Shown: in pieces, positions 2,528 through 59,702 of the stretch | Layout: every line of letters starts with the position of its first letter | How positions within the stretch are numbered: the stretch's first letter is position 1 | From: an uncultured Planctomycetales bacterium | Lineage (GTDB): Bacteria; Omnitrophota; Gorgyraeia; Zapsychrales; Aceulaceae | Assembly (NCBI GenBank): GCA_964648665.1 | Contig: CAZYOA010000001.1 | Coordinates: forward strand, 176,128-240,127 | Direction: 5' to 3' | DNA length: 64,000 bases | Translations under genes and position numbers: made by a program | The notes under the pieces: generated by a model | Told to the model about the DNA's origin: nothing | What the model saw: only the letters and a program-made list of their open reading frames with translations | Databases searched by the model: none

Positions 2528-2629
2528 ATGTTTAAAAATAAAAGTCATATTTTAATAAAGATTATTGCTCTAGCTGTAATATTCTTCTTTACGGCTACAA
2601 GTATATGCCCTAATCAAGCCCTAGCGCAA
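2528..2629 (+). other. Predicted signal peptide of the giant ORF
   Basis: MFKNKSHILIKIIALAVIFFFTATSICPNQALAQ: basic n-region, hydrophobic core, ALA-Q cleavage-type end. Confidence 0.7.
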
Positions 2630-9517: not shown

Positions 9518-9607
9518 TTAAACCTATCCCACCTTCGAGGTGGACATTGGGCTTGAAACCAATTTAGCCGTTTTAAAAATCATAGATATAGAATTTAAGA
9601 AAAGTTT

Positions 9608-10075
9608 TTATGCTAAGAGCACAAGGAGTAGCTCAAGAGCTTTTTTGCAGGCTTTTGATCGAACTTCAAGACGAGAACCTTTGAAATGACATTGAATACA
9701 AAGGTCTCTTTTTTTAGAACTTGCGGCAATAAACGTAAGGCCAATAGGTTTTTTCTTTGTTGCGCCAGTAGGTCCAGCTATTCCTGTGACGCCAATTCCG
9801 TAGTCGGCATCTATGGCTTTGCGCGCACCATTAGCCATTTTTATAGCAACTTCAGAACTTACTGCACCTTTTGATTTAATAAAATCTGCAGGGATTTTTA
9901 AAAATTTTGTTTTTGCTTGATTTGAATATGCTGTAATACCAGCTTTTAAGAATTTGGAGCTTCCGCTAACATTAATTAAGCGACTTGAAATAAGACCTCC
10001 GGTGCAAGATTCAGCAAGGCAAAGTGTTTTTTTACTGTTGATTAAAATTTTAGCTATTTTTTCTTCGATACGCAT
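9608..10075 (-). CDS. CinA-family protein (nicotinamide-nucleotide amidohydrolase PncC-like domain only)
   Basis: 155 aa; LAESCTGGLISSRL...GSS..F..G...YSN..K, GIGVTGIAGP.G. Confidence 0.8.
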   Translation of the reverse strand: MRIEEKIAKILINSKKTLCLAESCTGGLISSRLINVSGSSKFLKAGITAYSNQAKTKFLKIPADFIKSKGAVSSEVAIKMANGARKAIDADYGIGVTGIAGPTGATKKKPIGLTFIAASSKKRDLCIQCHFKGSRLEVRSKACKKALELLLVLLA

Positions 10076-36478: not shown

Positions 36479-37543
36479 ATGAAAATAATTATTGCAGCAG
36501 GAGGAACGGGTGGGCATGTTTTTCCAGCAATATCAACTGCACAAGAATTGCTAAGGTCTCATCAAGTTATTTTTTTTACGACTGATGGTTTGGCTGCAGA
36601 AATTATAAAGAAATCTAAATTTCAGCCTTGGATAGTTTGTCAAAAGAAAAGGTCATCAGATAATATTATTATTTTTGTAATAAAAATGATTCAAGCTGCG
36701 AGGGAGTGTTTTTATATTTTAAGAAAGATTTTACCAGATGTTGTTGTTGGCTTTGGAGGCTATCCGTCGTTTCCAGTTGTTTTTGCTGCTTGGATTCTAA
36801 AAATTCCGGTTGTCATTCATGAGCAGAATGTTGTTGCTGGTCGAGCAAACCGATTAGCGGCAATGTTTGCTAGTAAAATTGCCATTAGTTTTGATGAAGC
36901 AAGTCGATACTTTGATTCTAAAAAGGTTGTTTTGACCGGATGTCCTTCACGTTTCACGAGTAATCAGACAAGAACCCGAGAAGATTTTGAGAGTTTTGAT
37001 TTTAAAATCGGATGTCCAACAGTTCTTGTTTTTGGTGGGAGTCAAGCAAGCCAAAGAATTAACAAGGCATTTTCAGAGGCAGCTGTCTTTTTTAAAGGGA
37101 ATTTTAATTTTCAGTTCATTCATATTTGCGGCAAAGACGATTATTCTAAGCTTTGGAAGAAATATTCTGAAAATAAATTAAATTTTAAGCTTTTTGATTT
37201 CTTTGATGACATAGGATCTGCTTATCGTGTTGCGGACTTAGTTATTGCACGATCAGGCGCCTCGACAATTTCTGAACTTATTGCATTTAAAAAGTATTCG
37301 ATTTTAGTTCCGTATCCATCCGAAAAAGTTCATCAAAAAGAAAATGCTTTAGTGCTTTCGAATTTGGGTGTCTCTACAGTCATTGAGGATTCGAATCTTT
37401 CTTCGAACCGGCTGTATAATCAAATTTTGTCATTCTTCAAAGATAAAGAGAATAAAATAAATTTAGATAAAAATTTATTTCCGGAATCGGATATACAGGC
37501 ATCTCAGCGTTTGGCTCAAGAAGTAGAGAGGACTGCTTTTTGA
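36479..37543 (+). CDS. murG: UDP-N-acetylglucosamine--N-acetylmuramyl-(pentapeptide) pyrophosphoryl-undecaprenol GlcNAc transferase
   Basis: MKIIIAAGGTGGHVFPA start (ATG 36479, preferred over 36422, which overlaps ftsW); HEQN, GGSQAS. Confidence 0.9.
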   Translation: MKIIIAAGGTGGHVFPAISTAQELLRSHQVIFFTTDGLAAEIIKKSKFQPWIVCQKKRSSDNIIIFVIKMIQAARECFYILRKILPDVVVGFGGYPSFPVVFAAWILKIPVVIHEQNVVAGRANRLAAMFASKIAISFDEASRYFDSKKVVLTGCPSRFTSNQTRTREDFESFDFKIGCPTVLVFGGSQASQRINKAFSEAAVFFKGNFNFQFIHICGKDDYSKLWKKYSENKLNFKLFDFFDDIGSAYRVADLVIARSGASTISELIAFKKYSILVPYPSEKVHQKENALVLSNLGVSTVIEDSNLSSNRLYNQILSFFKDKENKINLDKNLFPESDIQASQRLAQEVERTAF

Positions 37544-38313
37544 AGAGATTAACATTTTTTATTTTAGTAACATTACTCTTGGGATTTCTTCCTGTTTCAT
37601 CGGCATCAAGCGAATGGAAAGAATTGAAGGGGCGTCATTTTGTTATATATTATAAGTCTTCACCTCGCGATTTTATCAAGACGGTTTTAGATTCTGCAGA
37701 GGATTATTATTATACGATTATTGATGATTTTGGATTCACAAGAGATAAGATTTGGACATGGGATGAACGGGTGAAAATTTATATTTATGATAGTCAAGAT
37801 GATTATATTACGGGTGCCAAGCAGGCCCATTGGTCGGCTGGATCAACAATGTTAGGTTCAAAAACAATACGAACATTTCCGTCGGCTCATGGTTTTTTTG
37901 ATTCACTTTTGCCTCATGAACTTGGGCATATAATTTTTAGAGATTACGTTGGATTTGAATCTAAGATTCCTTTATGGTTTGATGAGGGTGTTGCGATGTA
38001 TCAGGAAAAAGCAAAACGCTGGGGTTCAAATCAGCTTGTGAGTCAGGCGATTAAAGAAAAAACTTTTAAAAATTTATCAGAATTAACTCTTACGCGTAAA
38101 TCGACGCAGGAGGATGTTAATTTATTTTATGCAGAATCAGCAAGTATTGTTTATTATTTGATTTCTGAATTTGGAAGTTTTAGATTTCAGAATTTTTGCC
38201 GAAATCTTAAAAAAGGATTATCGTTTAATCGTTCACTTAAAAAAGCTTATTATCGTTTTTCTAATGTTGAGCAGTTAAATAAAGCTTGGGTATCATATTT
38301 AAAAAATGACTAA
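37540..38313 (+). CDS. Secreted HExxH zinc-metallopeptidase-like protein (peptidase MA / gluzincin-type arrangement)
   Basis: TTG start overlapping the murG stop. Signal peptide MKRLTFFILVTLLLGFLPVSSASS; HELGH followed 20 aa later by WFDEGVAMY (candidate third ligand Glu). Confidence 0.6.
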   Translation: MKRLTFFILVTLLLGFLPVSSASSEWKELKGRHFVIYYKSSPRDFIKTVLDSAEDYYYTIIDDFGFTRDKIWTWDERVKIYIYDSQDDYITGAKQAHWSAGSTMLGSKTIRTFPSAHGFFDSLLPHELGHIIFRDYVGFESKIPLWFDEGVAMYQEKAKRWGSNQLVSQAIKEKTFKNLSELTLTRKSTQEDVNLFYAESASIVYYLISEFGSFRFQNFCRNLKKGLSFNRSLKKAYYRFSNVEQLNKAWVSYLKND

Positions 38314-40639: not shown

Positions 40640-41402
40640 AAGACGTAAAAAGCAAACATTTAATTTCTCGATCTTTCAAGGTCAGTTTGTCCGTTATTTT
40701 GTTGCAATCCTTTTAATTGGATTTATTGTTTTTATATCAACAAAGAAGGGTATTCAGGCTTTTAGAAATTTATCTTATTTTAAAGTTTCATCTATTCGTT
40801 CTTCGACGGGAGAGATTTTTAAAGAAGAAAAACGCTTTTCTTATTTAAAAGGAAAAAATATTTTCTCAGTTGATCTTCAGGAATTTGAGCGTCAATTGAG
40901 ATGGGCATATCCTCAGGCAAAGAGTGTGCGCGTGTTGCGTCAATTGCCAAATGTGATTACGGTTGAGATTAGTGAGCGTGTGCCGTTTGCAATTATTTCA
41001 ATTGCTCGATTAAATGTAACTGTTGATGAAAAGGGATTTGTTGTTTCTAAAACAGCGGTAAATAAAAATCTTCCTCTTATTCTTGGCGTTTCATATCGAT
41101 CAGATAAAGTATTGGTTGGTCGTGTCATCGAGAGCAAGAGCGCTCAGCTTGCTATTTCAATCTTAAAGGCATTTAAAAGTGAATCTCTATCATCACGTAT
41201 TAAAATTGAAAAAGTGAATATCGGGAATTTATCAAAAATTTATTGTTATATTAAAGATGGACCAGAGGTTATTATCGACCAGGATCGTGTTACAGAAAAA
41301 ACTAAGACTTTAAAAATGGTGCTTAATAAAATGAGCGTAAAAATCGAAGATCTTCGATATATTGATTTACGATTTAAAGAGCCTGTTATAAGGAAGAAAT
41401 GA
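40623..41402 (+). CDS. ftsQ: Cell division protein FtsQ (POTRA domain)
   Basis: N-terminal basic tail plus one TM, POTRA-like region. Conserved position between ddl and ftsA. Confidence 0.7.
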   Translation: MAKRYKRRKKQTFNFSIFQGQFVRYFVAILLIGFIVFISTKKGIQAFRNLSYFKVSSIRSSTGEIFKEEKRFSYLKGKNIFSVDLQEFERQLRWAYPQAKSVRVLRQLPNVITVEISERVPFAIISIARLNVTVDEKGFVVSKTAVNKNLPLILGVSYRSDKVLVGRVIESKSAQLAISILKAFKSESLSSRIKIEKVNIGNLSKIYCYIKDGPEVIIDQDRVTEKTKTLKMVLNKMSVKIEDLRYIDLRFKEPVIRKK

Positions 41403-42625
41403 TCAAGGAAAAGATTTATTGTGGTCTAGATTTGGGTTCTCAGAAAATCAAGGCGAGTATAATGCGGATTTCAAAGGATCAACTTGATCTTTTGGGTGTT
41501 TCGCAAATTAATGCTCAAGGTATCTTAAGTTCATCAGTTACTGACTTAAGAGAGCTTTGTGATTGTACGCATCGCATTCTATCAGGCTTGTCTAAGAAAT
41601 CTGGCATAAAAATTAAGAATGTTAATCTTGGTCTGGGTGGTCATCTAGTTGATAGCCGTAACAGTCAGACAGTTATTCCTCTTACAGATCGAGGAAGCAA
41701 GGTGATTACATCTTTTGATATTCGAAAAATTAGTCGGCAAACTTGTCTTTTAGGTGTAAATTTAGATGAGCGATTATTTCATAATTTCCCAACACGATAC
41801 GTTGTTGATGGTTTTAATGTTGCGACGAACCCTTTGGGGTTGTATGGACGAAAGCTTGAAGTAGACAGTCTTTTGTTAGTTGCAAAGAATAATTTAGTTA
41901 ATAACATTTATAAATCTGTTAATCAAGCGGGTTTTGAGATCTCAAGAATCTTTTTTTCTTCGCTTTCTGCTGCTAAAATTGGCTTATCTTCGCAACAAAA
42001 AAAAGATGGATGTCTTTTTGTAAGCATAGGAACTGAAGTGACGGATATTTTATTTTTTAAAGATTATCTTTTGAAAGCTGTACGGATTATTCCTTGGGGC
42101 GGAAATCATTTAACGAATGCAATTAGTAAAGAGCTTGGCTTGCCGTTTGATTTGTCTGAGGATATCAAGCGATCATATGCATCTGTTTCGGATTGCGACC
42201 AAGAAGTCGAGCAGGGTGAAATTTTAGTAAAAAAAGATTCTGGATATATTCCAATACAGCGAGGAGATGTTTCGAAAGCAATTTGTTCATCGGTGCATGA
42301 TTTTATTAAGCAATTCTGTAATCTTCTTAATCAGGAGAAAATTATTGAACATTTATCTCAGGGTATCGTTATGAGTGGGGGTGGATCTTTGTTGCCTGGA
42401 TTGCTTGAACAAATTGAGAAGAAAACAAAGTTGCAGACTCAAATCGGAAAAGTTGGGGTTGAGTCTAGGCGCTTAAGTAATCCGGCTGTTTATGCGGCAG
42501 CAATAGGTTTAGCGCAAGATAATGGCAAGGATTCGTTGAATAATATTTTTTCACCAAATGAAAGTGGATCAGTGGTTAAGCGTTTTTCTAATCGAGTTAA
42601 AGAAATTTACCAGGAGTATTTTTAA
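41399..42625 (+). CDS. ftsA: Cell division protein FtsA (actin-like ATPase)
   Basis: GLDLGSQKIKA phosphate-1 motif, SGGGSLLPG, C-terminal amphipathic tail VKRFSNRVKEIYQEYF. Confidence 0.85.
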   Translation: MIKEKIYCGLDLGSQKIKASIMRISKDQLDLLGVSQINAQGILSSSVTDLRELCDCTHRILSGLSKKSGIKIKNVNLGLGGHLVDSRNSQTVIPLTDRGSKVITSFDIRKISRQTCLLGVNLDERLFHNFPTRYVVDGFNVATNPLGLYGRKLEVDSLLLVAKNNLVNNIYKSVNQAGFEISRIFFSSLSAAKIGLSSQQKKDGCLFVSIGTEVTDILFFKDYLLKAVRIIPWGGNHLTNAISKELGLPFDLSEDIKRSYASVSDCDQEVEQGEILVKKDSGYIPIQRGDVSKAICSSVHDFIKQFCNLLNQEKIIEHLSQGIVMSGGGSLLPGLLEQIEKKTKLQTQIGKVGVESRRLSNPAVYAAAIGLAQDNGKDSLNNIFSPNESGSVVKRFSNRVKEIYQEYF

Positions 42626-43596
42626 TGAATAGTTTAAAAGATTCAAAAGTTGTTGTTACGGGTGGAGCTGGGTGTATTGGTTCTTTTGTTGTTGATGAAG
42701 TTTTGCGACAGGGTGCCAAAGAAGTTGTTGTTGTTGATAATTTTGTACGTGGATTAAAGAAAAATATTGAACCTGCCTTATCAACGGGAAGAGCACGTTT
42801 GATGGAGGAAGATATTAGAGATGCTGATGCTATGAAAGAAGCTTTTAAGGGTGTTGATTATTGTTTTCATTTAGCATCTTTAAAAATTATTCAGTGTAAT
42901 GCTGAACCTCGTCATGCTTTAGAAGTTAATGTTGATGGAACATTTAATGTTTTAGAAGCATGTGCACAAAATAATGTTAAAAAAATTGTTTTATCTTCAA
43001 CCGCTTCAGTTTATGGACATGCGGATAATTTTCCGACTCAAGAAACTCATCATCCTTATAATAGTTATACTTTGTATGGTGCTTTTAAGGTTGCCAATGA
43101 ATTGATGTTTCAGTCCTTTTACCAGATGAATGGACTAAAGTTTAATACTCTTCGTTATTTTAATGTTTTTGGGCCGAGAATGGACGCGCATGGAAAATAT
43201 ACAGAAGTTTTGATTCGTTGGTATCAGTTGATTAAGAAAGGTGAGCAGCCTTTAATTTATGGTGATGGAAAGCAAACTATGGATTTTATTTATGTTGAAG
43301 ATGTTGCGCGCGCAACCGTTTTAGCTTTAACGGCAGATACTTGTAATCAAGTTTTTAATTGCGCAAGCGGAAAAGAAACCTCGCTTGAAGAACTTTGTTG
43401 TGCACTGCTAGAAGTTATGAAATCTGATTTAAAGCCAAAGTATATAGACATGCCAGCGGATAGGAATAAAATTGAAGTTCTTAGACGATTGGCAGATGTT
43501 TCAAAGGCAAGAGAAAATATTGATTTTCAGGTTGAGGTTGACTTAAGGCAGGGGCTAGAAAGACTTGTGCAATGGCTTGAGGCGGAGAAAATTTAA
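42625..43596 (+). CDS. NAD-dependent nucleotide-sugar epimerase/dehydratase (extended SDR)
   Basis: TGGAGCIGS Rossmann motif, SSTASVYG, YGAFK (YxxxK). The ATG overlaps the ftsA stop (TAATG). Confidence 0.85.
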   Translation: MNSLKDSKVVVTGGAGCIGSFVVDEVLRQGAKEVVVVDNFVRGLKKNIEPALSTGRARLMEEDIRDADAMKEAFKGVDYCFHLASLKIIQCNAEPRHALEVNVDGTFNVLEACAQNNVKKIVLSSTASVYGHADNFPTQETHHPYNSYTLYGAFKVANELMFQSFYQMNGLKFNTLRYFNVFGPRMDAHGKYTEVLIRWYQLIKKGEQPLIYGDGKQTMDFIYVEDVARATVLALTADTCNQVFNCASGKETSLEELCCALLEVMKSDLKPKYIDMPADRNKIEVLRRLADVSKARENIDFQVEVDLRQGLERLVQWLEAEKI

Positions 43597-44855
43597 TGAA
43601 AATGATACCTATCACGCGTCCTTTTTTAGGTGAAGAAGAGGTTGAGGCAGCAGCGCGATCTATTCGCTCGGGTTGGGTTACGCAAGGTCCAAAAGTTAAG
43701 GAATTTGAAGATGCTTTTGCGTCGTTTGTTGGCGCCAAACATGCTTGTGCGGTATCAAATTGTACAACCGCACTTCATTTAGCTCTGTTGGCGGTTGGGG
43801 TTAAGCCTGGTGATGTTGTTATAACTGTTAGTCATTCTTTTATCGCAACAGCGAATAGTGTGCGTTATTGTGGCGGAGAGCCAGTTTTTGTAGATATTGA
43901 ATCACAGAGTGTTAATATGTGCCCGAAAGCTTTGAAACTTTTTTTAGAGAATGATTGTGAAAAAAGGCCGACTGGTTTATTTTATAAGCATGTTAATCGT
44001 TTAATTCGAAAAGAATCGCCTTTGTCTAATTTAGTTGGGCAGGATAAAGGGAAAATAGAGAATGTTGGACGAATTTCTGCTATTGTTGCTGTTCATCAAT
44101 TAGGAATTCCGTGTGATTTAAGGAATATTTTACCGCTTTCAAATTTGTATAAAATTCCTGTTGTTGAAGATGCTGCATTTGCTACTGGAAGTGAAATTTC
44201 TTTTGATGATGGGAAAGTTTGGGAAAAAATCGGAAAGCCTCATGGCGACATTGCATGTTTTTCTTTTCACCCTAGAAAACCTTTGGTCACAGGGGAAGGT
44301 GGAATGCTAACAACAGCAAATGAGCAATATGATAGTATGTTTCGCTTGATGCGCCATCAGGGCATGGCAGTTTCAGATTTAGTTCGTCATCAGTCAAAGA
44401 AAATTATTATCGAAGATTATATTGTCACTGGATACAATTACCGTATGACAGATATCCAAGCCGCTATCGGTGTCGAGCAGCTTAAGCGTTTACCGGAGAT
44501 GATTCGAAAGAAGAAAGAAATTTCTGAGTTTTATTTAAAGAATTTCTCAGAAATTTCATGGGCAGAAAAGATTTTAGATCCATCTTATGGTCATTCGAAC
44601 TGTCAAAATTTTCCTATTGTTTTAAACGAATCTGCACCATTGGATCGAGACGAAATAATGCAATATTTCTTGGATCGAGGTATTTCAACGCGTCCGTGTG
44701 TTATGAATTCACATCATGAAATTCCTTATAAATCAGATTTATGGTCTTTGCCAAATTCAGATCGGACTCGCAATCGAGGTATTTTGTTGCCTTTATTTTA
44801 CGAGATAACTGATCAGGAATTAGAACAAATTGTTGAGGCTTTTAAGAATGTCTAA
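43596..44855 (+). CDS. DegT/DnrJ/EryC1/StrS-family PLP-dependent sugar aminotransferase
   Basis: PITRPFLGEEE, G.VTQGPKV.EFE, SFHPRKPLVTGEGGML (PLP Lys). The ATG overlaps the upstream stop. Confidence 0.85.
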   Translation: MKMIPITRPFLGEEEVEAAARSIRSGWVTQGPKVKEFEDAFASFVGAKHACAVSNCTTALHLALLAVGVKPGDVVITVSHSFIATANSVRYCGGEPVFVDIESQSVNMCPKALKLFLENDCEKRPTGLFYKHVNRLIRKESPLSNLVGQDKGKIENVGRISAIVAVHQLGIPCDLRNILPLSNLYKIPVVEDAAFATGSEISFDDGKVWEKIGKPHGDIACFSFHPRKPLVTGEGGMLTTANEQYDSMFRLMRHQGMAVSDLVRHQSKKIIIEDYIVTGYNYRMTDIQAAIGVEQLKRLPEMIRKKKEISEFYLKNFSEISWAEKILDPSYGHSNCQNFPIVLNESAPLDRDEIMQYFLDRGISTRPCVMNSHHEIPYKSDLWSLPNSDRTRNRGILLPLFYEITDQELEQIVEAFKNV

Positions 44856-45498
44856 AGATTTAATTTTATTTCCATTTGGTGGTAGTGCAAGAGAAGCTCT
44901 TGTGACAATTCAGTCGTGCTCTATTTTATCTGACGAGTGGAATATTCTTGGTTTCGTAGACGACAACTCGGAGTTAAAAGATAAAGAATGTTGTGATGTT
45001 AAAGTTTTAGGAGGGCGTGAAGTTTTTGATCAAAATAAAAATGCTTATGTTTTGGCTGTTCCGGCTCATCCAGATAGTTATTTAAAAAGAAAAATGATTA
45101 TTGATAATCTTGGCATTGATTTTAAAAGATGGGCAACGATTATTCATTCGAGTTGTGTTGTTTCGAAAGATGCGCAAATAGGCGTAAATACAATCGTTAT
45201 GCCTTATGGATTTATAAGTTCTAAAGCAAGTATTGGTAATCATTGTGTTATTTTATCGCGATCTATTATTTCACATGATGTAAAAATAAAGGATTATTGT
45301 TGCCTTGGTGGCCATGTAACAATCTCTGGATCTGTTGTGATTGATGAGCAATCTTATATTGGATCATCGGCAACAATTCGAGAAGATATTTCAATAGGTA
45401 GAGGTGCTTTAGTTGGCATGGGATCTAATGTTGTTGGTAATCTTCAGTCAGGTGTTGTTGTTGTTGGAAATCCGGCAAAAGAAATTCGAAAAGAATAG
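44848..45498 (+). CDS. Sugar N-acetyltransferase, NeuD/PglD-like (left-handed beta-helix)
   Basis: N-terminal Rossmann-like LILFPFGGSAREAL...ILGFVDDN, then hexapeptide repeats (IG.N..I). Start taken at ATG 44848 (MSKDL...). Confidence 0.8.
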   Translation: MSKDLILFPFGGSAREALVTIQSCSILSDEWNILGFVDDNSELKDKECCDVKVLGGREVFDQNKNAYVLAVPAHPDSYLKRKMIIDNLGIDFKRWATIIHSSCVVSKDAQIGVNTIVMPYGFISSKASIGNHCVILSRSIISHDVKIKDYCCLGGHVTISGSVVIDEQSYIGSSATIREDISIGRGALVGMGSNVVGNLQSGVVVVGNPAKEIRKE

Positions 45499-45525
45499 TA
45501 TAAAAAATTATACAAGGAAATAAAA

Positions 45526-46446
45526 ATGATCTCAGTAATTTTTCCCGTATTTAATGAGCAGGATAATCTCCAAGAATTATATCAGCGCTTGTCATCCGCG
45601 GTAGAAAAGGTAGAGGGGTATGACTTTGAATTTATTTTTGTTGATGATTGCTCGGCTGATAAAACGCCAGAAATTTTAAAAGATTTACATTCAAAAGATC
45701 AGCGCGTGAAGATCATTCGATTTGCACGTAACTGTGGAGGTCATGCGGCTCTCATGGCTGGTCTTTATTCTTGCAAGGGTGATTGCGCGATAGCGTTGGC
45801 TGCAGATCTTCAAGATCCGCCTGAATTGATATTTGATTTAATTGCGAACTGGAAAGAAGGAGCAAAAATTGTTTGGGCAGCAAGATTAAAACGACAAGGC
45901 GAAAGTTTTTCAGTAAAAATATTTTCTAAGTTTTATTATACGTTAATCAATGTTTTAACAAATGTTCAAATGCCGAGTTTGGGAGTTGATGTTTTCTTGG
46001 CAGATCGCATAGCTATTGAATCTTTAAAAAGCATGCCAGAAAAACATAGCTCTATTTATATGGCGCTTGCGTGGCTTGGTTTCCCTCAAGCAACAATTGA
46101 ATATGTTAAAGAAGCAAGAGCTAATGGGGCTTCAAAGTGGAGTTTAAGTAAAAAAATTAAACTTATGATTGATTCGATTTTATCATTTAGTCATGTCTTG
46201 ATTCGATCAATGAGCATTTTTGGTTTTGTAACAGCGCTTGTTGGCTTTGCCTATGCGGCTTGGATTGTCGGAAAGGCATTGTTGTATGGATTTGCAGTTC
46301 AGGGGTGGTCTTCACTTATGGTGGCTATTCTTGTTGTTGGTGGCATTCAAATGATGATGCTTGGTGTTTTAGGTGAATATCTTTGGAGAACATTTGATGA
46401 ATCTCGTCGAAGACCGAGGTTTGTTATTGAGTATAAAATTGATTAA
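45526..46446 (+). CDS. Polyprenyl-phosphate glycosyltransferase, GT2 family (GtrB/ArnC/DPM1-like)
   Basis: ISVIFPVFNEQDN, VDDCSADKT, AADLQDPPE; two C-terminal TM helices typical of GtrB/ArnC. Confidence 0.85.
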   Translation: MISVIFPVFNEQDNLQELYQRLSSAVEKVEGYDFEFIFVDDCSADKTPEILKDLHSKDQRVKIIRFARNCGGHAALMAGLYSCKGDCAIALAADLQDPPELIFDLIANWKEGAKIVWAARLKRQGESFSVKIFSKFYYTLINVLTNVQMPSLGVDVFLADRIAIESLKSMPEKHSSIYMALAWLGFPQATIEYVKEARANGASKWSLSKKIKLMIDSILSFSHVLIRSMSIFGFVTALVGFAYAAWIVGKALLYGFAVQGWSSLMVAILVVGGIQMMMLGVLGEYLWRTFDESRRRPRFVIEYKID

Positions 46447-46451
46447 AGATT

Positions 46452-48287
46452 ATGAAAAGAAATAAAATTGCAATTGAAGTGTTAATTTTTTCTTTAATGT
46501 TGCTGTCTTTGGCAATTAAGCATTTGAGTCCATATTTGATTCAAAATCTTTATGCAAATAATGAAATCTTTTTACTTAATTTATTTTCTGGCAATTTAGG
46601 CAAGGTTGCAGAATCTGTTGATTTTTATTTGGGTCGATCTCAGGAGGTTCTTTTTGGTCCAGTAAGCCTTATTTTTTCTGGATCAGCTCTTATTTTGTTT
46701 TGTTTAAAATATCTTGAGAGATTAACCTTTTGGAAATTTGCCGCCACACTTTTCATCTTCCTTATTATTACAAAATTTGAAATTTTATTTTTTCCACCTT
46801 ATGGCGATTCGGCAAGCGGGCCTGTCATTGAAGGAATTTGGCTTTTACATAATGATTTTAATTATGCGAAGCTGGCAGGAGAGGTTGTTTTTGTTAGAGG
46901 CGGACCGAAAGTCTACCTTTTTTCTTTATATCCGACTTATTTAGCTATTTTGATGAAAATATTTACAAATGGAAAAATGTTTGTCGCCGTGAATCATGTT
47001 CTTATCTTTGGAGCCAGTGCGATTATTCTTTCATATTTTCGTTCACTGGCTTATAAAATTTTTAATAAGCGTTTATCTGTATTGTTGACTATTTTTCTTT
47101 TATCGTTGCCTCTTGTGCAAAGTCAAATTGAACAAATTAACATGGAAATTCCTGTTCTGTTCTTTGCGATGGCATGTCTTTATTATGTAGCAAATAAGAA
47201 GATTCTTCGTGGCGCTCTTTTTGCCGGTCTTGCTATTTTTACAAAATTGTATTCAGTGTATATGGGCGGAGTTGTTTTATTTGTTGGATTATATTTGTTT
47301 TTCTTTGCAGAGAAACAAAAAGGAAATTTAAAAGTTCTAGGCTCAAGCATTCTTTCTGTTTTCTTTGCAATAGCGGGAGCACTTAGCTTGTTCTTTTTTA
47401 TGAATTTGGATGGAAGCAAGGTTGATAAGGTGGGCATGTTTCAGGGATTTTATTTAATCAAGACATTTCCTGTGACTTATTTTTATACGTTTAGTTTTAT
47501 CGCATTAATTGTTTTTGCAATTTTATTTATTCGAAAGCAGAATAAGAGTGTTTTAAGATCTTTGAATGAGTTTATACTTTCTCATTTCGAAGTTATGGTT
47601 ATTTTTGTTTGCTCGATGGGGTGGTTTGTTTTATTCTTAAACTCAGGCTGGATTCCTCCACGATATACATTGCTTTTGTTGCCATCGTTGATTCTTGGCG
47701 CTTTTTATGTTGCAAACAATTTAATTCAAAATAAGAAATTATTAGAGCAGGGCGTAATGGCTCTAATCTTTATTGGATTTTTGTGTTCCTACGGACTTCC
47801 TTATGAGCCTGTTAAAATTCAGGATCATGCGATTACAGAACGAAGCCTTGAATATAGAAATGATGTTTTGTTGCACATGAAACTTGCGAAATTGCTTGAA
47901 GAAAAGTATTCAAACTTAATTATTGGTGCGCCATTTACGTTAGCTCAAGTATTAGCATTTCCAGAGATGGGATTTACTTCCAAGAAATTAGATATTATGA
48001 TTTATCTATATCCGTGCACGTATGGGGGAGTTCGAAATTTTGAAGGATTTGAAAAGATTAACCCAAAAAATATTGTTTGGGTTGGCGTTAAGACTCCGTT
48101 TATGTTTAGCGAGCATGTGCCGTATGGTCTGCATGATTTAATTATTGAAGAGCTGGAAGTTGGAAATAAATATGCAAATTTATTTGTCGGTGGATTTTCT
48201 GTAAATGCATTGTATCATTATGGTCAATCTTTGGTGCGTCAAATGGAAGCGCATGGTATCAAGAAACCAGAACTTAAAGCTTATTAA
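46452..48287 (+). CDS. Large polytopic membrane protein with C-terminal soluble domain (possible GT-C-fold glycosyltransferase)
   Basis: 611 aa, at least 12 hydrophobic helices, then a ~150-aa hydrophilic tail. Loop FFPPYGDSASGPVIEG and LYPTYLAIL are weakly GT-C-like. Context is next to the GtrB-like GT2. Confidence 0.45.
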   Translation: MKRNKIAIEVLIFSLMLLSLAIKHLSPYLIQNLYANNEIFLLNLFSGNLGKVAESVDFYLGRSQEVLFGPVSLIFSGSALILFCLKYLERLTFWKFAATLFIFLIITKFEILFFPPYGDSASGPVIEGIWLLHNDFNYAKLAGEVVFVRGGPKVYLFSLYPTYLAILMKIFTNGKMFVAVNHVLIFGASAIILSYFRSLAYKIFNKRLSVLLTIFLLSLPLVQSQIEQINMEIPVLFFAMACLYYVANKKILRGALFAGLAIFTKLYSVYMGGVVLFVGLYLFFFAEKQKGNLKVLGSSILSVFFAIAGALSLFFFMNLDGSKVDKVGMFQGFYLIKTFPVTYFYTFSFIALIVFAILFIRKQNKSVLRSLNEFILSHFEVMVIFVCSMGWFVLFLNSGWIPPRYTLLLLPSLILGAFYVANNLIQNKKLLEQGVMALIFIGFLCSYGLPYEPVKIQDHAITERSLEYRNDVLLHMKLAKLLEEKYSNLIIGAPFTLAQVLAFPEMGFTSKKLDIMIYLYPCTYGGVRNFEGFEKINPKNIVWVGVKTPFMFSEHVPYGLHDLIIEELEVGNKYANLFVGGFSVNALYHYGQSLVRQMEAHGIKKPELKAY

Positions 48288-49645
48288 GATTTTTCCTGCC
48301 AAAAAGAGTAAAAACTAACAAATAAAGCAGTTGGAAGAAGATAAAGAATGATGCGGCTTGCTGTGCATTCAAGGCGCCAGGTTAGGTCAAAGTGTGCCGT
48401 TGTGAGGTAAACATAAAGAAGGATAAAACCAAAAAGAACAAAGAAGATGCTAAAAATTTTATTTTCATTTTGAATAAGATTTTTTGGTTTAAATATCCCA
48501 AGTAGAAAAATAAATATCCAAATAAAGTTCCACTTCTTATCCGTAAGCTCTGATCCGTAAAAGCCAACAGTTGTTAATAACCCGTTTAGATTGCAAAATT
48601 CCAGATTCTTTGTTAAAGGATTAAATAAAACTTCTCGAGTGCTTGGAGCAAGAAAGATTTTAAAAATTATAGTTGCTGCACCTGTGCAGGCAAATCCGAT
48701 TAATAAAAATTTAATAATTTTAAGTCTTTTATCAGGATCAATATTTTTATTTAAAAACAAATATCCAATGGTAAGTCCAATCAGAAGGAAAAGCATGACG
48801 ATGCCTTCATTTTTTGCAAACGGCATTAATCCCAGAAATAATCCAGTCAGTAGAGAAAATCTGTGATTCTTTGTTTTCATTGTCAGAGTTAGCAGGATGA
48901 CGCTGGAAAGAAGAAAATAAGCTAAAACGATATCTGCATATTGAGTTGTGCTCCAGAAAATATAAGAAGGTGTTGTCATTAATAAAACAGACGCTAATAA
49001 GGCAACCCATTTTTTTATAAATTGGGAGAGGCCGCTGTAGATGAGAAGTCCGCATGTAGCCGAAAAAATTATAGAAGTTAACGATGCTGCTTTGACGATA
49101 CCACTTTGAAATACTGAGTAAATCCATGTGTTAATTAACGGAAGCAAGATTGGGTAGCTTGGTTGCGTGTGCCAATGAGCTTTTGCAAAATCTGCCCAAC
49201 GTTCAGAGCCGAAAACAAGAAATTTGGCTTTCATGTTGTAGAGTCCCCAAGCATCCCAACCACCAGATGGATATTGTTGAGACAAGATGGAGATGCCGAT
49301 AATCGCAACTCCCCAAGCAATAAATGCTGTTATCCAGAATTTATTATTAATTTTTGGTAATTGATTTTCAGTTTCAATCTTGTTTTCTGGCGAAGAGAAA
49401 TAGAAAATATTTGTAATAAATAAACTTAAAAGGGTGGCAATATTAATTGTTAAAATTGCGGTTTGATTAAATTCCCTAAAAATAAAGAATGAATAAAATG
49501 TGATAGATGCTGATATTCCAAGTCCTAAACCCAGAGATAGGCAGAGAATTAGTAGGCCTGAAATTTGAGGTTGATTTCTAAGAATAAGGCGAATAGTAAA
49601 GAATCCGATAAAAAGAGATATCAGATATGTGAGGAGATTAATCAT
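48284..49645 (-). CDS. Polytopic membrane protein, GT-C-fold (ArnT/PMT-like) glycosyltransferase candidate
   Basis: 453 aa, about 12 TM. The first large loop GGWDAWGLY...HTQPSYPILLPL resembles the acidic-loop plus hPPL motif of GT39/GT83 enzymes. Confidence 0.5.
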   Translation of the reverse strand: MINLLTYLISLFIGFFTIRLILRNQPQISGLLILCLSLGLGLGISASITFYSFFIFREFNQTAILTINIATLLSLFITNIFYFSSPENKIETENQLPKINNKFWITAFIAWGVAIIGISILSQQYPSGGWDAWGLYNMKAKFLVFGSERWADFAKAHWHTQPSYPILLPLINTWIYSVFQSGIVKAASLTSIIFSATCGLLIYSGLSQFIKKWVALLASVLLMTTPSYIFWSTTQYADIVLAYFLLSSVILLTLTMKTKNHRFSLLTGLFLGLMPFAKNEGIVMLFLLIGLTIGYLFLNKNIDPDKRLKIIKFLLIGFACTGAATIIFKIFLAPSTREVLFNPLTKNLEFCNLNGLLTTVGFYGSELTDKKWNFIWIFIFLLGIFKPKNLIQNENKIFSIFFVLFGFILLYVYLTTAHFDLTWRLECTASRIILYLLPTALFVSFYSFWQEKS

Positions 49646-50085
49646 AGTTTACGCTCGACAATTATTTTCCCAAAAGGGTTTATATAGATAGGTTTTCCTT
49701 TAATAATGGATAAAATTGATCCAGCTTTTTGAGGTGTTGATGCATCAATAATGTTAATGTGATGAGCTGGATTGTTTAGATCAAGCAAAATTGGTGCAAG
49801 TATGTATTGAGCCATCATAAAGCGTCCGTCGTTATCTTCTGGTGTTGGTGTTGTTTCGCTCAAGAATCCAACAATGTCATAATCTTCAAGTTTTTCTTTG
49901 AGATCGAAATATTGAAAACCTGGTTCAACTGATCGGTTTGCTACTGTTGTAATCTGAGCCATGATGCTAATAAAATTCAGAACAAGGTTGCTGACGATTA
50001 GAATAACAAGTGCGCCAATTAAGAACTTTGATAAATAGGGTATTTTTTTATTTTTCATATTTATAGAATTAAATTTCAACGACAT
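49642..50085 (-). CDS. Hypothetical bitopic membrane protein
   Basis: 147-aa ORF overlapping the start of the downstream GT-C-like gene by 4 nt. One N-terminal TM, no motif. Confidence 0.4.
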   Translation of the reverse strand: MSLKFNSINMKNKKIPYLSKFLIGALVILIVSNLVLNFISIMAQITTVANRSVEPGFQYFDLKEKLEDYDIVGFLSETTPTPEDNDGRFMMAQYILAPILLDLNNPAHHINIIDASTPQKAGSILSIIKGKPIYINPFGKIIVERKL

Positions 50086-57280: not shown

Positions 57281-57649
57281 ATGATTGAAGCCCTTACGCA
57301 AATATTTATAATGCAAATTATTTTGGGGTCGATTGTTATTTTTGTTCTTAAGAAAATTCTTGATCACCAGCTTAATGAGCTTGCTGTTAAAACATTTAAG
57401 AATGCAAAGCTTGAACCTGATGATTTAAAGCTAGGAAGCATTCTTGTATCATCGCCTTTTCGAATATCGAAGAAAATTCAAGATCGTATTGTTGAAATTG
57501 CAAAAAAGAAGTTTGGGCGCCCTATGTCTATTGTGATTAAGAAGGATCGGTCATTAAAAGGGGGCATGATTATTTATTTGAATAGTTTGATCGTTGATTA
57601 TAGTTTGGTGGGACGCCTTAAAGAGGGCGGCATTATTAGAAAGAAATAG
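57281..57649 (+). CDS. Hypothetical membrane-anchored protein with ATP-synthase delta/OSCP-like C-terminal motif
   Basis: 122 aa, N-terminal TM. The C-terminus SLKGGMIIYLNSLIVDYSLVGRL parallels the delta-subunit ending SLIGG.II..G..VID.SV.GRL. Confidence 0.4.
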   Translation: MIEALTQIFIMQIILGSIVIFVLKKILDHQLNELAVKTFKNAKLEPDDLKLGSILVSSPFRISKKIQDRIVEIAKKKFGRPMSIVIKKDRSLKGGMIIYLNSLIVDYSLVGRLKEGGIIRKK

Positions 57650-57650
57650 A

Positions 57651-58352
57651 ATGAAAATTTTAGTCATTGTTCCAGCGTTTAATGAGAGTGGTAATATAGC
57701 TCAAGTTGTTGAAGATATTCGAACAAGTGGATTTGATTGCGAGATTTTAATCGTTGATGACGGCTCTAGCGATAATACGTATGAAGCTGCAAAAATGTGC
57801 AATGTTCATGTTGCAAGATTGCCTTTTAATCTTGGAATTGGTGGGGCTGTTCAAACGGGATTTCTTTATGCAGCGCGATGTGGATTCGATATAGCGATTC
57901 AATTTGATGGAGATGGGCAGCACGATGCGCGATTTTTAGCTCAACTTATTGATCCTATTGTTAGCAGTGATGCTGATCTAGTTATTGGAAGTCGATTTTT
58001 ACCGCCAAATCTTGGATATCAGTCATCATGGGTTCGCCGTATCGGTATTCATTTCTTTTCAAATTTAATTAGTTTCTTAACTCGATTAAAAATAACTGAT
58101 CCGACATCTGGTTTTCGTGCTTGTGGAAGAAAAGTTATTGAAATTTTTTCAGAAGATTATCCTCTAGATTTTCCAGAGCCAGAATCTATTGTTGAGGTGA
58201 AACGGTGCGGACTTCGCATTCTTGAGATACCTGTTGAGATGAAACAGCGCATTTCAGGACATTCATCAATTCGATATTTTAGAACTTTGTATTATATGGT
58301 TAAGGTAACGTTTGCAATATTGTTATGCATGATTCAAACAAAAAAGAGGTAG
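57651..58352 (+). CDS. GT2-family glycosyltransferase (dolichyl/polyprenyl-phosphate sugar synthase-like)
   Basis: MKILVIVPAFNESGNI, VDDGSSDNT, FDGDGQHD. Start taken at ATG 57651 (the upstream extension overlaps the previous gene). Confidence 0.85.
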   Translation: MKILVIVPAFNESGNIAQVVEDIRTSGFDCEILIVDDGSSDNTYEAAKMCNVHVARLPFNLGIGGAVQTGFLYAARCGFDIAIQFDGDGQHDARFLAQLIDPIVSSDADLVIGSRFLPPNLGYQSSWVRRIGIHFFSNLISFLTRLKITDPTSGFRACGRKVIEIFSEDYPLDFPEPESIVEVKRCGLRILEIPVEMKQRISGHSSIRYFRTLYYMVKVTFAILLCMIQTKKR

Positions 58353-58703
58353 GTGATTATGACACTTAAAATTGTAACGATAGGGCTGTCTCTCGCAATT
58401 CTTTTTATTGTTATTGATTTTTCTCGACGAGGAAAGTTAACTTTTAAATATGCTGCTGGATGGATTTGTTTAGGAATCCTAGGAGCTGGTTTTGCAACTT
58501 TTGATCGTTTTTTATTTCTTTGTTCGGATTTCTTTGGATTTAAGTTGATGAGTAATTTTATTTTCTTTTCTTTATTTTGTTTTTTCCTTTTTTTGAGTCT
58601 TTTGTTGTCTACGTTTTTATGCGATCAAAATAAACGCAATGATATTATGGCGCAAAAGATTGCTTTGTTAGAAAAAGAAGTTTGCACTCTTAAAGGAGAA
58701 TAG
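58353..58703 (+). CDS. Small membrane protein, DUF2304-like partner of GT2 enzymes
   Basis: 116 aa with 3-4 TM plus a C-terminal coiled tail. Immediately follows the GT2 gene, an arrangement recalled as typical for DUF2304. Confidence 0.5.
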   Translation: MIMTLKIVTIGLSLAILFIVIDFSRRGKLTFKYAAGWICLGILGAGFATFDRFLFLCSDFFGFKLMSNFIFFSLFCFFLFLSLLLSTFLCDQNKRNDIMAQKIALLEKEVCTLKGE

Positions 58704-58709
58704 CTTTTC

Positions 58710-59702
58710 ATGGTAAATTCGCTTGTTTCAATAGTCGTGCCCGCATACAATGCACAAAAAACTTTAGGTTCAACTCTAAAAGCTATTTTAAGTCAGACAT
58801 ATTCAGATTCTATAGAAATTATTGTTGTAGATGATGGATCAACTGATCAAACAACAGATCTTGTTAAGTCTTTTGAAAATATTGTTTATATTTATCAAAA
58901 AAATGCAGGTCCAGCAACAGCGCGAAATCGTGGCTTTTCAATAGCTAAAGGCGATTTTGTTTTTTTTACGGATTCAGATTGTATTCCTCATGTAGATTGG
59001 ATTCAAAAATCAATGGATCATTTTTCTGATATCTCGATTGGTGTTGTTTGCGGTAGCTATGGGATTGCAAATCCAAAGAATTTATTAGCAAGATGCATCC
59101 ACAAAGAAATTCTCTTTCGTCACAAAACCCTTATGCCAGATTTTCCCAAGTCTTTTGGTAGCTATAACTTTTGCGTCAGAAAGAATATTTTTGAAGCTGC
59201 TGGCGGGTTTGATTCTCAGTACCGTAGCCCAAGCGGGGAGGATAACAATTTAAGTTATAAAATTTTAAATCTGGGATCAAAGATCTATTTTGAGCGTAGG
59301 TCTATTGTTGATCATTTTTTCCCAGTTTCTTTTAAAAAATATTTTTTAGAACAGTTTCGTCATGGATTCTGGCGTGTTAAAGTTTATATTAGCCATCCGC
59401 TTATGGCTCGAGGAGACGACTACACTTTTTGGAAAGATATTGCTGAACCTGGACTTGTTTTTAGTTTTTTAATGGCAACTCTTTTGTCTATAGTCGGTTT
59501 TCCTGTTTTCTCGGGTGCAATTTTATTGCTTCTTTTGCTTCTTGCAATTGAGCTTTTTTATGGATTTTTAATGACAAAAAATGTGCCGGAAGGCATCTTT
59601 TTGTCTGGCATTATGTTTATTCGTTCATTCTATCGAAGCCTCGGCTTTGCTTACGGAATCACCCGTTTTTTCCTTCCAAAGTTATTCAAAAAGAATCAAT
59701 AA
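58710..59702 (+). CDS. GT2-family glycosyltransferase with C-terminal TM helices
   Basis: VSIVVPAYNA, VDDGSTD, FTDSDC, GEDNNLSY (ED-type motif). Confidence 0.8.
   Translation: MVNSLVSIVVPAYNAQKTLGSTLKAILSQTYSDSIEIIVVDDGSTDQTTDLVKSFENIVYIYQKNAGPATARNRGFSIAKGDFVFFTDSDCIPHVDWIQKSMDHFSDISIGVVCGSYGIANPKNLLARCIHKEILFRHKTLMPDFPKSFGSYNFCVRKNIFEAAGGFDSQYRSPSGEDNNLSYKILNLGSKIYFERRSIVDHFFPVSFKKYFLEQFRHGFWRVKVYISHPLMARGDDYTFWKDIAEPGLVFSFLMATLLSIVGFPVFSGAILLLLLLLAIELFYGFLMTKNVPEGIFLSGIMFIRSFYRSLGFAYGITRFFLPKLFKKNQ

Follow-up and report, generated by a model that had tools for sequence, protein, structure and literature searches.

A putative polyprenyl-phosphate-sugar glycosylation module with an unannotated GT-C family next to ftsA in Aceula-related Omnitrophota

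Introduction

The Arn system (PmrHFIJKLM; ArnA, ArnB, ArnC, ArnD, ArnE/F and ArnT) adds 4-amino-4-deoxy-L-arabinose (L-Ara4N) to lipid A. In the Francisella FlmF2/NaxD/FlmK and Bordetella LgmA/LgmC/LgmB systems, an ArnC-like family 2 glycosyltransferase (GT2) loads an N-acetylhexosamine (HexNAc) onto undecaprenyl phosphate, an ArnT-like glycosyltransferase of the GT-C fold transfers it to lipid A, and a deacetylase acts on the lipid-linked sugar. In mycobacteria, PpgS (Rv3631) and Rv3632 feed the GT-C enzyme Rv3779 for the galactosamine modification of arabinogalactan (PMC3485146), and the Streptococcus mutans Pgf locus (PgfS, PgfE, PgfM1 and PgfM2) encodes a GT-A transferase, a GalE-like epimerase and two GT-C proteins (PMC5856776, PMC12041528). 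Here, we describe a seven-gene locus at positions 42625-50085 of a 64,000-nucleotide stretch of DNA (in the following, the window) from an Aceula-related member of the Omnitrophota. The locus is probably a polyprenyl-phosphate-sugar module of the Arn/Gtr/Pgf type for extracytoplasmic glycosylation, co-transcribed with the end of the division and cell wall (dcw) operon.

In gene content, the locus appears closest to a split Arn pathway when relatives are compared. Like the Gtr systems (GtrA, GtrB and GtrC), which glucosylate O-antigen, it has a GT2 that is nearest to GtrB among solved structures, adjacent GT2 and GT-C genes and several such paralogous pairs per genome, but it differs from them in the absence of a GtrA flippase from the window, in amino-sugar tailoring genes upstream and in a GT-C protein whose sequence shows no relationship to the GtrC families known so far. 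Unlike in the Francisella and Bordetella systems, there is no deacetylase in the window. The mechanism is standard lipid-carrier two-step glycosylation and changes no concept, its logic being already known from Arn, Gtr, Pgf and PpgS–Rv3779. New are the GT-C family, the modular tailoring set and the coupling to ftsA in the Aceula lineage.

Gene content and setting of the locus

An earlier reading of this DNA (the original prediction) had named seven open reading frames (ORFs) here. All seven are present at their coordinates in the ORF list of the window, with the motifs it had singled out, SFHPRK (within FSFHPRKP of the aminotransferase) and ADLQDPPE (within AADLQDPPE of the GT2). Because each has orthologues in many Omnitrophota metagenome-assembled genomes (MAGs), they are genuine genes and not chance ORFs. 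The locus and the gene preceding it are:

41399-42625 (+): ftsA, final gene of the dcw cluster (context; Pfam FtsA/SHS2_FTSA)
42625-43596 (+): extended short-chain dehydrogenase/reductase (SDR), epimerase-type, 323 residues (PF01370, 181 bits)
43596-44855 (+): DegT/ArnB-type pyridoxal phosphate (PLP)-dependent sugar aminotransferase, 419 residues (PF01041, 315 bits)
44830-45498 (+): N-acetyltransferase of the NeuD/PglD/VioB family, 222 residues (TIGR03570, 172.4 bits)
45526-46446 (+): predicted GT2 polyprenyl-phosphate glycosyltransferase of the GtrB/ArnC/PgfS family, 306 residues (PF00535, 101 bits)
46452-48287 (+): predicted GT-C-fold glycosyltransferase of an unannotated family, 611 residues (AlphaFold2 and Foldseek)
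48284-49645 (-): predicted GT-C glycosyltransferase, PMT_2/GT39-like, 453 residues (PF13231, 37 bits)
49642-50085 (-): bitopic protein of 138-147 residues with one transmembrane (TM) segment and no family match

The dcw cluster of the window is complete (mraZ … ftsW, murG, a Peptidase_MA_2 insert, murC, ddl, ftsQ and ftsA) and the sugar locus follows directly. Downstream lie a tRNA-Arg gene and glycine-cleavage genes, the remaining window is ordinary chromosome, and the G+C content of the locus (about 35%) equals that of the remainder of the window. The TAA stop codon of ftsA overlaps the ATG of the SDR gene (TAATG), and overlaps of the TAATG or ATGT kind join ftsA and the SDR, aminotransferase and acetyltransferase genes; translation of the acetyltransferase more likely begins with an ATG that lies at 44848 and overlaps the aminotransferase stop. 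A promoter and terminator scan gave no signal exceeding shuffled expectation. The junction of ftsA and the SDR gene is also found in L001, L003, L005, L006 and L036 (L numbers denote the loci of relatives), and the adjacency is restricted to the Aceula lineage, in which the sugar locus is translationally coupled to ftsA at the usual place of ftsZ. The version of the locus in the window is minimal and the same as in Candidatus Aceula lacicola (L003). The closest relatives of the 611- and 453-residue proteins belong to Candidatus Aceula (68-71% identity), and all relatives of the two proteins in the MAG searches come from Omnitrophota.

Conserved linkage of GT2 and GT-C genes

The GT2 has strong homology to polyprenyl-phosphate glycosyltransferases of the GtrB/ArnC/PgfS type. 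It consists of a GT-A domain followed by two C-terminal TM segments (residues 223-286 by hydropathy scan), and in a search of PDB sequences its residues 2-301 align to Synechocystis GtrB (5ekp) at 228 bits and to the ArnC structure at 138 bits. Together with the PF00535 match, this agrees with the GtrB/ArnC-type GT2 with two C-terminal TM segments that had been proposed. The best NCBIfam names are PgfS (223 bits, cut-off 500) and ArnC (167 bits, cut-off 529), both below the equivalog level.

A linkage survey with one genome per species gave 53 loci, all from Omnitrophota (some labelled ‘uncultured Planctomycetales’), which were read by ORF calling and phmmer searches with the window proteins. 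Two arrangements recur. In type A, found in about a dozen loci (L001/L004, L003, L005, L006, L036, L007, L009, L013, L041 and L051, as well as L011, which has no GT2), the order is SDR, aminotransferase, in some cases an acyltransferase, GT2, variable genes and the 611-residue GT-C. In type B, found in about 25-30 loci, a GT-C paralogue is directly followed by a different GT2 of the GtrB/ArnC type. Of the family genes, 44 have at least 1.2 kb of sequence on both sides; a GT2 gene of the GtrB/ArnC type lies within 200 nt of 24 of these and within 3 kb of 33, an adjacency that supports the predicted use of a polyprenyl-phosphate-linked donor by the GT-C family. A relative of the 611-residue protein in Kiritimatiellia likewise directly follows a 315-residue GT2. 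Since the type A order recurs in diverse Omnitrophota and GT2 adjacency is systematic, the soluble genes, the GT2 and the 611-residue GT-C can be regarded as linked, and the lack of conserved linkage that had been named as an outcome speaking against the original prediction was not what the survey found.

Genomes encode several GT-C paralogues, and each of these is paired with a separate GT2. Some loci contain duplicates of the 611-residue GT-C, in tandem or close by (L001 at 8163-9971, L007, L013, L030 and L032), and one genome, JAHFGL01, has up to four copies (L007 plus L045).

A GT-C family without a Pfam model

The 611-residue protein matches no Pfam or NCBIfam model, PMT and ArnT models included. 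By hydropathy it has at least 11 hydrophobic segments and the 453-residue protein about nine, and the AlphaFold2 models of the two proteins contain 12-13 membrane-length helices. The model of the 611-residue protein, built from an alignment of 63 homologues, has a pLDDT of 94 and a pTM of 0.94; that of the 453-residue protein has a pLDDT of 89.8. All Foldseek matches of the former in the PDB at E<=0.1 are GT-C enzymes (ALG9, ALG12, ArnT, PglB, AglB, AftA and EmbA/B/C), with E 1e-5 and a template modelling (TM) score of 0.51-0.56 for ALG9 and E 6e-5 and a TM-score of 0.44-0.49 for ArnT. For the latter, all matches at E<=1 have the GT-C fold and nearly all are glycosyltransferases (STT3, PglB, AglB, ALG9, ArnT and PMT). 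These GT-C-fold matches mostly have a probability of 0.9-1.0, whereas unrelated membrane proteins such as transporters and oxidases match only at a probability of <=0.2 (E>=0.2 for the 611-residue model and E>=0.9 for the 453-residue model). Both proteins are therefore predicted to have a GT-C fold. The GT-C-like reading of the original prediction, for which structure prediction had been suggested as a check, is upheld by this result, and the contrary case raised there, membrane proteins of another fold, is not what AlphaFold2 and Foldseek indicate.

Sequence profiles point the same way. The family profile of the 611-residue protein matches PIG-M, the glycosylphosphatidylinositol (GPI) mannosyltransferase I, at E 1e-5 over residues 170-305, and the same core region is aligned to the family of the 453-residue protein with 81% hhalign probability. 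PMT_2 is matched weakly by 10 of the 63 members and not by the window protein, so the family does not belong to PMT_2 by the Pfam test. The 453-residue protein does pass the PMT_2 cut-off (PF13231, 37.0 bits against 26.1) and has relatives annotated as ‘glycosyltransferase family 39’; it also matches PF02366 at 23.5 bits (cut-off 22.7), PMT_2 being the better match, and it matches no ArnT model. A search of PDB sequences with its family profile gave no match. Neither GT-C passes as ArnT/GT83 by sequence (PF02366 and ArnT models), and neither matches YfhO (PF09586) in Pfam.

That the two large proteins are polytopic envelope proteins other than glycosyltransferases (O-antigen ligases or polymerases, for instance, or transporters) is scarcely credible. 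The missing family match of the 611-residue protein would suit this idea, as would the moderate TM-scores of its model to GT-C enzymes (0.4-0.56) and the high root-mean-square deviations, but it has to contend with structural matches that are all of the GT-C fold within the thresholds given above, with the profile similarity to PIG-M and PMT_2, with conserved acidic motifs on the predicted periplasmic side and with the systematic adjacency to polyprenyl-phosphate GT2 genes.

These motifs contain the candidate active-site residues. In the 611-residue protein, the predicted periplasmic loop 117-173 carries D119 (87% conserved) and E127 (92%) within PPYGDxxxGPxxEAxWL; further conserved elements are QSQxExINME (E227, N230 and E232), K265 and R404/Y405, and a C-terminal alpha/beta domain of about 160 residues carries LERSLEYRND. 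In the 453-residue protein, the invariant residues are D131 (100%, in GGWDAW), Y236/D238, K278/E280 and R431. The positive-inside rule, applied to K/R counts in short loops, places D119/E127 and E227/E232 of the former and D131 of the latter in the periplasm, and the conserved polar residues of both proteins are thus candidates for the expected GT-C active site. Acidic residues in the first extracytoplasmic core loop, which the original prediction had proposed to look for, are accordingly present (D119/E127 and D131), with a predicted role in catalysis.

The first two TM helices of the 611-residue protein are an add-on, and shorter relatives (490-560 residues) begin at about profile position 90. 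An exhaustive profile search gave 1,616 cluster representatives at E<=1e-3, of which 526 reach E<=1e-30, and all representatives named by source are annotated as ‘hypothetical’. Members come mainly from Omnitrophota; Latescibacterota, Gemmatimonadota and Kiritimatiellia have shorter relatives. Searches of the literature on Omnitrophota glycosyltransferases and on the PDB codes 8VR2/8VR3 returned nothing relevant. The 611-residue protein thus represents a GT-C family without a Pfam or NCBIfam model, and it is this family that is new in the locus. With a model of high confidence, candidate residues for catalysis and adjacency to a GT2 of the GtrB/ArnC type as a genomic rule, the family can now be annotated.

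Synthesis and tailoring of the sugar

The PglF/E/D and VioA/B routes begin with a 4,6-dehydratase and the Arn pathway with a decarboxylating oxidase, enzymes that have T-D-E or T-S-E beside the catalytic Thr; non-dehydrating C4 oxidases of the SDR type are also known. The SDR of the window has GxxGxxG, S-T-A-S (SSTASVYG) and YGAFK motifs, its active-site motifs are conserved in 11 orthologues, and the T-D/S-E signature of dehydratases and decarboxylases is found neither in it nor in these orthologues. Its nearest PDB entries, 6dnt (the best match, with a generic name), 4zrm (GalE), WbpP and WbgU, are annotated as epimerases or epimerase/dehydratases. It reaches no NCBIfam equivalog cut-off, including those for dehydratases, ArnA and UXS; scores against PseB, RmlB and LegB are far below the cut-offs and that against ArnA is 39 bits. 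An ArnA-like decarboxylase and a 4,6-dehydratase were both rejected on the active-site motif and the model scores.

A synthesis like that of PglF/E/D or VioA/B, as put forward in the original prediction, needs a 4,6-dehydratase and is not supported by an SDR that is epimerase-type in its motifs, model scores and nearest structures. We propose instead that the SDR is a nucleotide-sugar 4-epimerase or a C4 oxidoreductase. In the first case, the keto sugar would be made by an enzyme encoded elsewhere, for which relatives have a GFO oxidase; in the second, the SDR would itself be a non-dehydrating C4 oxidase. As its active site is of the epimerase type and lacks the residues of a 4,6-dehydratase, the window leaves the entry to the pathway unexplained.

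The aminotransferase has its PLP lysine within FSFHPRK and an insertion of about 40 residues after residue 107. Its best NCBIfam matches are PseC, LegC and ArnB, all under cut-off, and its nearest PDB entries are ArnB (8sng and 1mdo) and perosamine synthase. The acetyltransferase, of the left-handed beta-helix family, passes the cut-off of TIGR03570 (NeuD/PglB/VioB; 172.4 bits against 160.8); its nearest PDB entry is VioB (7txp). Because the aminotransferase most resembles enzymes that act at C4 (ArnB, perosamine synthase, PseC and LegC), and the acetyltransferase VioB, PglD and PerB, a 4-acetamido sugar is favoured as the product of the three enzymes.

The tailoring genes vary among relatives. 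In L011, L013, L051 and L030, an ArnA-N-like formyltransferase gene stands at the place of the acetyltransferase gene; in L001/L004, L006 and L036, this place is empty. An oxidoreductase gene of the GFO/IDH/MocA type (best match UDP-GlcNAc 3-dehydrogenase) stands directly before the SDR gene in L007, L041 and L051 and farther upstream in L009, L011 and L030; the presence of this gene in relatives would argue for a 3-amino sugar instead. Between GT2 and GT-C, relatives carry one or more of a 127-residue, four-TM EamA protein with weak similarity to ArnF/SMR (a flippase candidate), a CN-hydrolase together with an N-acetyl-sugar amidotransferase of the WbuX family, a B12-binding radical-SAM enzyme and a methyltransferase. 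Overall, the locus family looks like a split and variably tailored Arn-type pathway on a fixed core of GT2 plus GT-C, and the swapping of tailoring genes (acetyltransferase for formyltransferase, GFO oxidase, WbuX with CN-hydrolase, B12 radical-SAM, ArnF-like flippase) amounts to a natural experiment in Arn/Gtr-type diversification.

Some of these insertions deserve a separate description. The CN-hydrolase gene directly precedes that of the WbuX-family PP-loop amidotransferase in L007 (7812-9981), L013 (6004-8043) and L051 (7904-9930). Together they resemble a glutamine-dependent amidotransferase of the NadE kind divided between two genes, which suggests that these relatives make an acetamidino sugar. 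The CN-hydrolase had also been considered as an ArnD-like deacylase; by analogy with glutamine-dependent NAD synthetase, it is more likely the glutaminase partner of WbuX. The B12-binding radical-SAM enzyme, similar to HpnJ and ‘lipid biosynthesis B12-rSAM’ proteins, is encoded between GT2 and GT-C in L005 (8487-9935) and in L006 and L036 (both 8488-9963), all Aceula-related. A 390-residue protein in L053 with an HDIDT motif was tried as a NodB/ArnD-like deacetylase and dropped, as it matches no Pfam or NCBIfam model.

A proposed pathway

In the cytoplasm, the SDR, aminotransferase and acetyltransferase would make an N-acetylated amino sugar from a nucleotide sugar. The keto intermediate would be supplied by the SDR itself, as a C4 oxidoreductase, or by an oxidase or dehydratase encoded elsewhere. 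At the inner face of the membrane, the GT2 would, judging from its strong homology, place this sugar onto undecaprenyl phosphate. The lipid-linked sugar would then be flipped, a step for which relatives have the EamA/ArnF-like four-TM protein and the window locus has none. On the periplasmic side, the 611-residue GT-C, with the fold described above, would move the sugar to an acceptor in the envelope, using the conserved acidic residues D119/E127 and E227/E232. The three stages set out in the original prediction (tailoring, loading by the GT2 and transfer by a GT-C at the outer face) hold in this scheme by homology, fold and gene linkage.

Several observations weigh against this pathway. The sugar pathway is incomplete in the window, as the SDR lacks dehydratase or decarboxylase residues and as tblastn searches and Pfam searches of the larger ORFs revealed no GFO oxidase, dehydratase, deacylase or flippase gene in the 64 kb. 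The original prediction had already noted that no flippase was evident, which tblastn confirms for the window, and the same searches gave no homologue of the CN-hydrolase, WbuX, radical-SAM, deacetylase-like, methyltransferase or formyltransferase genes of relatives. The catalytic residues of the GT-C proteins are deduced from conservation and topology. In addition, the GT2 is missing from the 3 kb around 11 of the 44 family genes, and many type B pairs have the GT2 as their only neighbour, without amino-sugar genes, so that the GT-C family is not strictly dependent on such genes.

The last point, the roughly 25-30 type B loci that pair a GT-C paralogue with a GT2 in the absence of sugar-tailoring genes, and the missing oxidase or dehydratase could also mean that the window holds two unrelated units, a soluble trio feeding a cytoplasmic O-antigen or capsule pathway and a separate Gtr-like pair of GT2 and 611-residue protein that moves a common sugar (glucose or N-acetylglucosamine) from undecaprenyl phosphate to a glycan of the surface. 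We consider such a split quite improbable. The order SDR, DegT, acyltransferase and GT2 has been kept although the 611-residue orthologues are only 37-48% identical; start and stop codons overlap at the junctions in the window; the type A GT2s form an orthologue group of their own (415-574 bits with phmmer) distinct from the type B GT2s (186-242 bits); and the locus contains no Wzx, Wzy, initiating transferase or further cytoplasmic glycosyltransferases.

Candidate acceptors

If the locus does act as a polyprenyl-phosphate-sugar module, its acceptor could be lipid A, a glycan or a protein. In an Arn-type modification of lipid A, the N-acylated amino sugar would be loaded onto the carrier and the 611-residue GT-C would be an analogue of ArnT acting on a lipid A phosphate. 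The window shares with Arn an aminotransferase nearest to ArnB among solved structures, N-acylation before lipid loading, a GT2 of the ArnC family (138-167 bits to ArnC) and a GT-C terminal transferase, with ArnT among the top structural matches of its model. Relatives add the ArnA-N-like formyltransferase in place of the acetyltransferase and the ArnF-like small membrane protein, and the organism is a diderm with secretin and type II secretion system (T2SS) genes in the window. Given these Arn-like genes in relatives, lipid A stays among the candidates, but we regard it as an unlikely acceptor. The window SDR is of the epimerase type and not an ArnA decarboxylase (it has no ArnA T-S-E motif and only 39 bits to ArnA), acylation in the window is by acetyl and not formyl groups, and the window contains no formyltransferase, no ArnD-type deformylase or deacetylase and no ArnE/F flippase. 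Lacking a deacylase of the ArnD type, the pathway would yield a neutral sugar, without the cationic charge of the Arn product. By sequence, moreover, the 611-residue protein falls outside GT83/ArnT, and the presence of several paralogues in a genome, each paired with a GT2, is more reminiscent of Gtr or Pgf.

Protein O-glycosylation of the Pgf/PMT type has somewhat more in its favour, although we hold it, too, to be doubtful. Here, the GT2 would make undecaprenyl-phosphate-linked donors of the HexNAc type and the two GT-C proteins would act on Ser/Thr-rich envelope proteins, possibly of the divisome or cell wall. PgfS is the best NCBIfam name of the GT2, the Pgf operon likewise combines a GT-A transferase, a 4-epimerase and two GT-C proteins in one locus (the SDR here being epimerase-like), the 453-residue protein is PMT_2/GT39-like and the locus is translationally coupled to ftsA. 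Pgf glycosylates membrane-associated proteins, and FtsQ peptides were recovered in small amounts (PMC12041528). However, PgfM1 and PgfM2 belong to the YfhO family and the GT-C proteins of the window do not, Pgf includes neither an aminotransferase nor an acetyltransferase, the host here is a diderm, the ftsA adjacency is found only in the Aceula lineage and no candidate Ser/Thr-rich acceptor was identified. Taken together, decoration of a glycan or protein, as by Gtr or Pgf, is somewhat more likely than an Arn-like modification of lipid A, since the several GT2/GT-C pairs of a genome and the lack of a deacylase are easier to reconcile with it than with a cationic modification of lipid A.

The setting of the locus allows a more specific, and highly speculative, proposal, to which we give very little weight: the 611-residue family may serve a dedicated envelope modification in Omnitrophota and a few neighbouring phyla and, in the Aceula lineage, be expressed from the divisome operon, where it would attach an unusual N-acetylated amino sugar to septal peptidoglycan or to proteins of the divisome. 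If true, envelope glycosylation would be tied to cell division in a lineage in which the status of FtsZ is unclear. A review describes the presence of FtsZ in Omnitrophica as unclear (PMC5147048), and the FtsZ tubulin signature (GGGTG[ST]G) was found in no frame of the 64-kb window or of 58 related loci.

The 453-residue GT-C and its bitopic partner

The 453-residue gene is convergent with the 611-residue gene, their stop codons overlapping by 4 nt, and is preceded by the gene for the small bitopic protein, with a start/stop overlap of 4 nt; start and stop overlap in relatives as well. This 147-residue protein (138 residues in database gene calls, which begin at Met10) has an N-terminal TM segment and an extracytoplasmic domain of about 100 residues with the motif AQYxLAPxxLD. 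It matches no Pfam or NCBIfam family, and its few database homologues are all hypothetical. A homologue is encoded directly upstream of the 453-residue orthologue in L001, L003, L005, L006, L056, L057 and L058. In the last three, which are from distant Omnitrophota, the pair adjoins YfhO-like or other genes and not the SDR/DegT/GT2 set; adjacency of the pair to the sugar locus is confined to the Aceula lineage. Since the pair is conserved elsewhere without SDR, DegT and GT2 genes, the sequences mark it as an independent module of a GT-C and a bitopic partner that is inherited separately. This bears on the suggestion in the original prediction that two GT-C proteins imply two acceptors: the two GT-C-fold proteins are there, whereas the step from them to two acceptors is weakened.

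The 453-residue GT-C and its partner may use the donor of this locus or another one. In L057 (5070-7382, -), the pair divergently adjoins genes for a GFO_IDH_MocA protein, a hexapeptide acetyltransferase and a 243-residue GT2, which may be its own donor pathway. In the window, a second candidate cluster for polyprenyl-phosphate-sugar synthesis lies at 57594-59699 (+), where a PpgS-like GT2 and a DUF2304 protein are followed by a further GT2 (330 residues, EpsD/MftF-like). Its first two genes are tentatively described as:

57594-58700 (+): PpgS-like GT2 (252 residues) and DUF2304 small membrane protein (PF00535, PF10066)

The best NCBIfam match of this GT2 is PpgS, at 112 bits against a cut-off of 370. 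From their proximity (about 8 kb), it is possible that the GT2/DUF2304 pair feeds the 453-residue GT-C, much as a GT2-made polyprenyl-phosphate-HexNAc donor is used by a GT-C in the mycobacterial PpgS/Rv3632/Rv3779 system. The weak PpgS match, a link drawn from proximity and a different envelope architecture set the two cases apart.

Other features of the window

Three further ORFs of the window stand out. A 122-residue ORF at 57281-57646 (+), conserved in L001, has a weak match to the C-terminal part only of ATP synthase delta/OSCP and adjoins no other ATP synthase genes. The Peptidase_MA_2 gene inserted between murG and murC (37540-38313, +) encodes a protein with a signal-peptide-like N-terminus, and the insertion is kept in L001. 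Finally, an ORF of 2,329 residues at 2528-9517 (+) has a C-terminal GNAT acetyltransferase domain (residues 2097-2206) as its sole Pfam match; very long proteins of Omnitrophota have been treated in a recent preprint.

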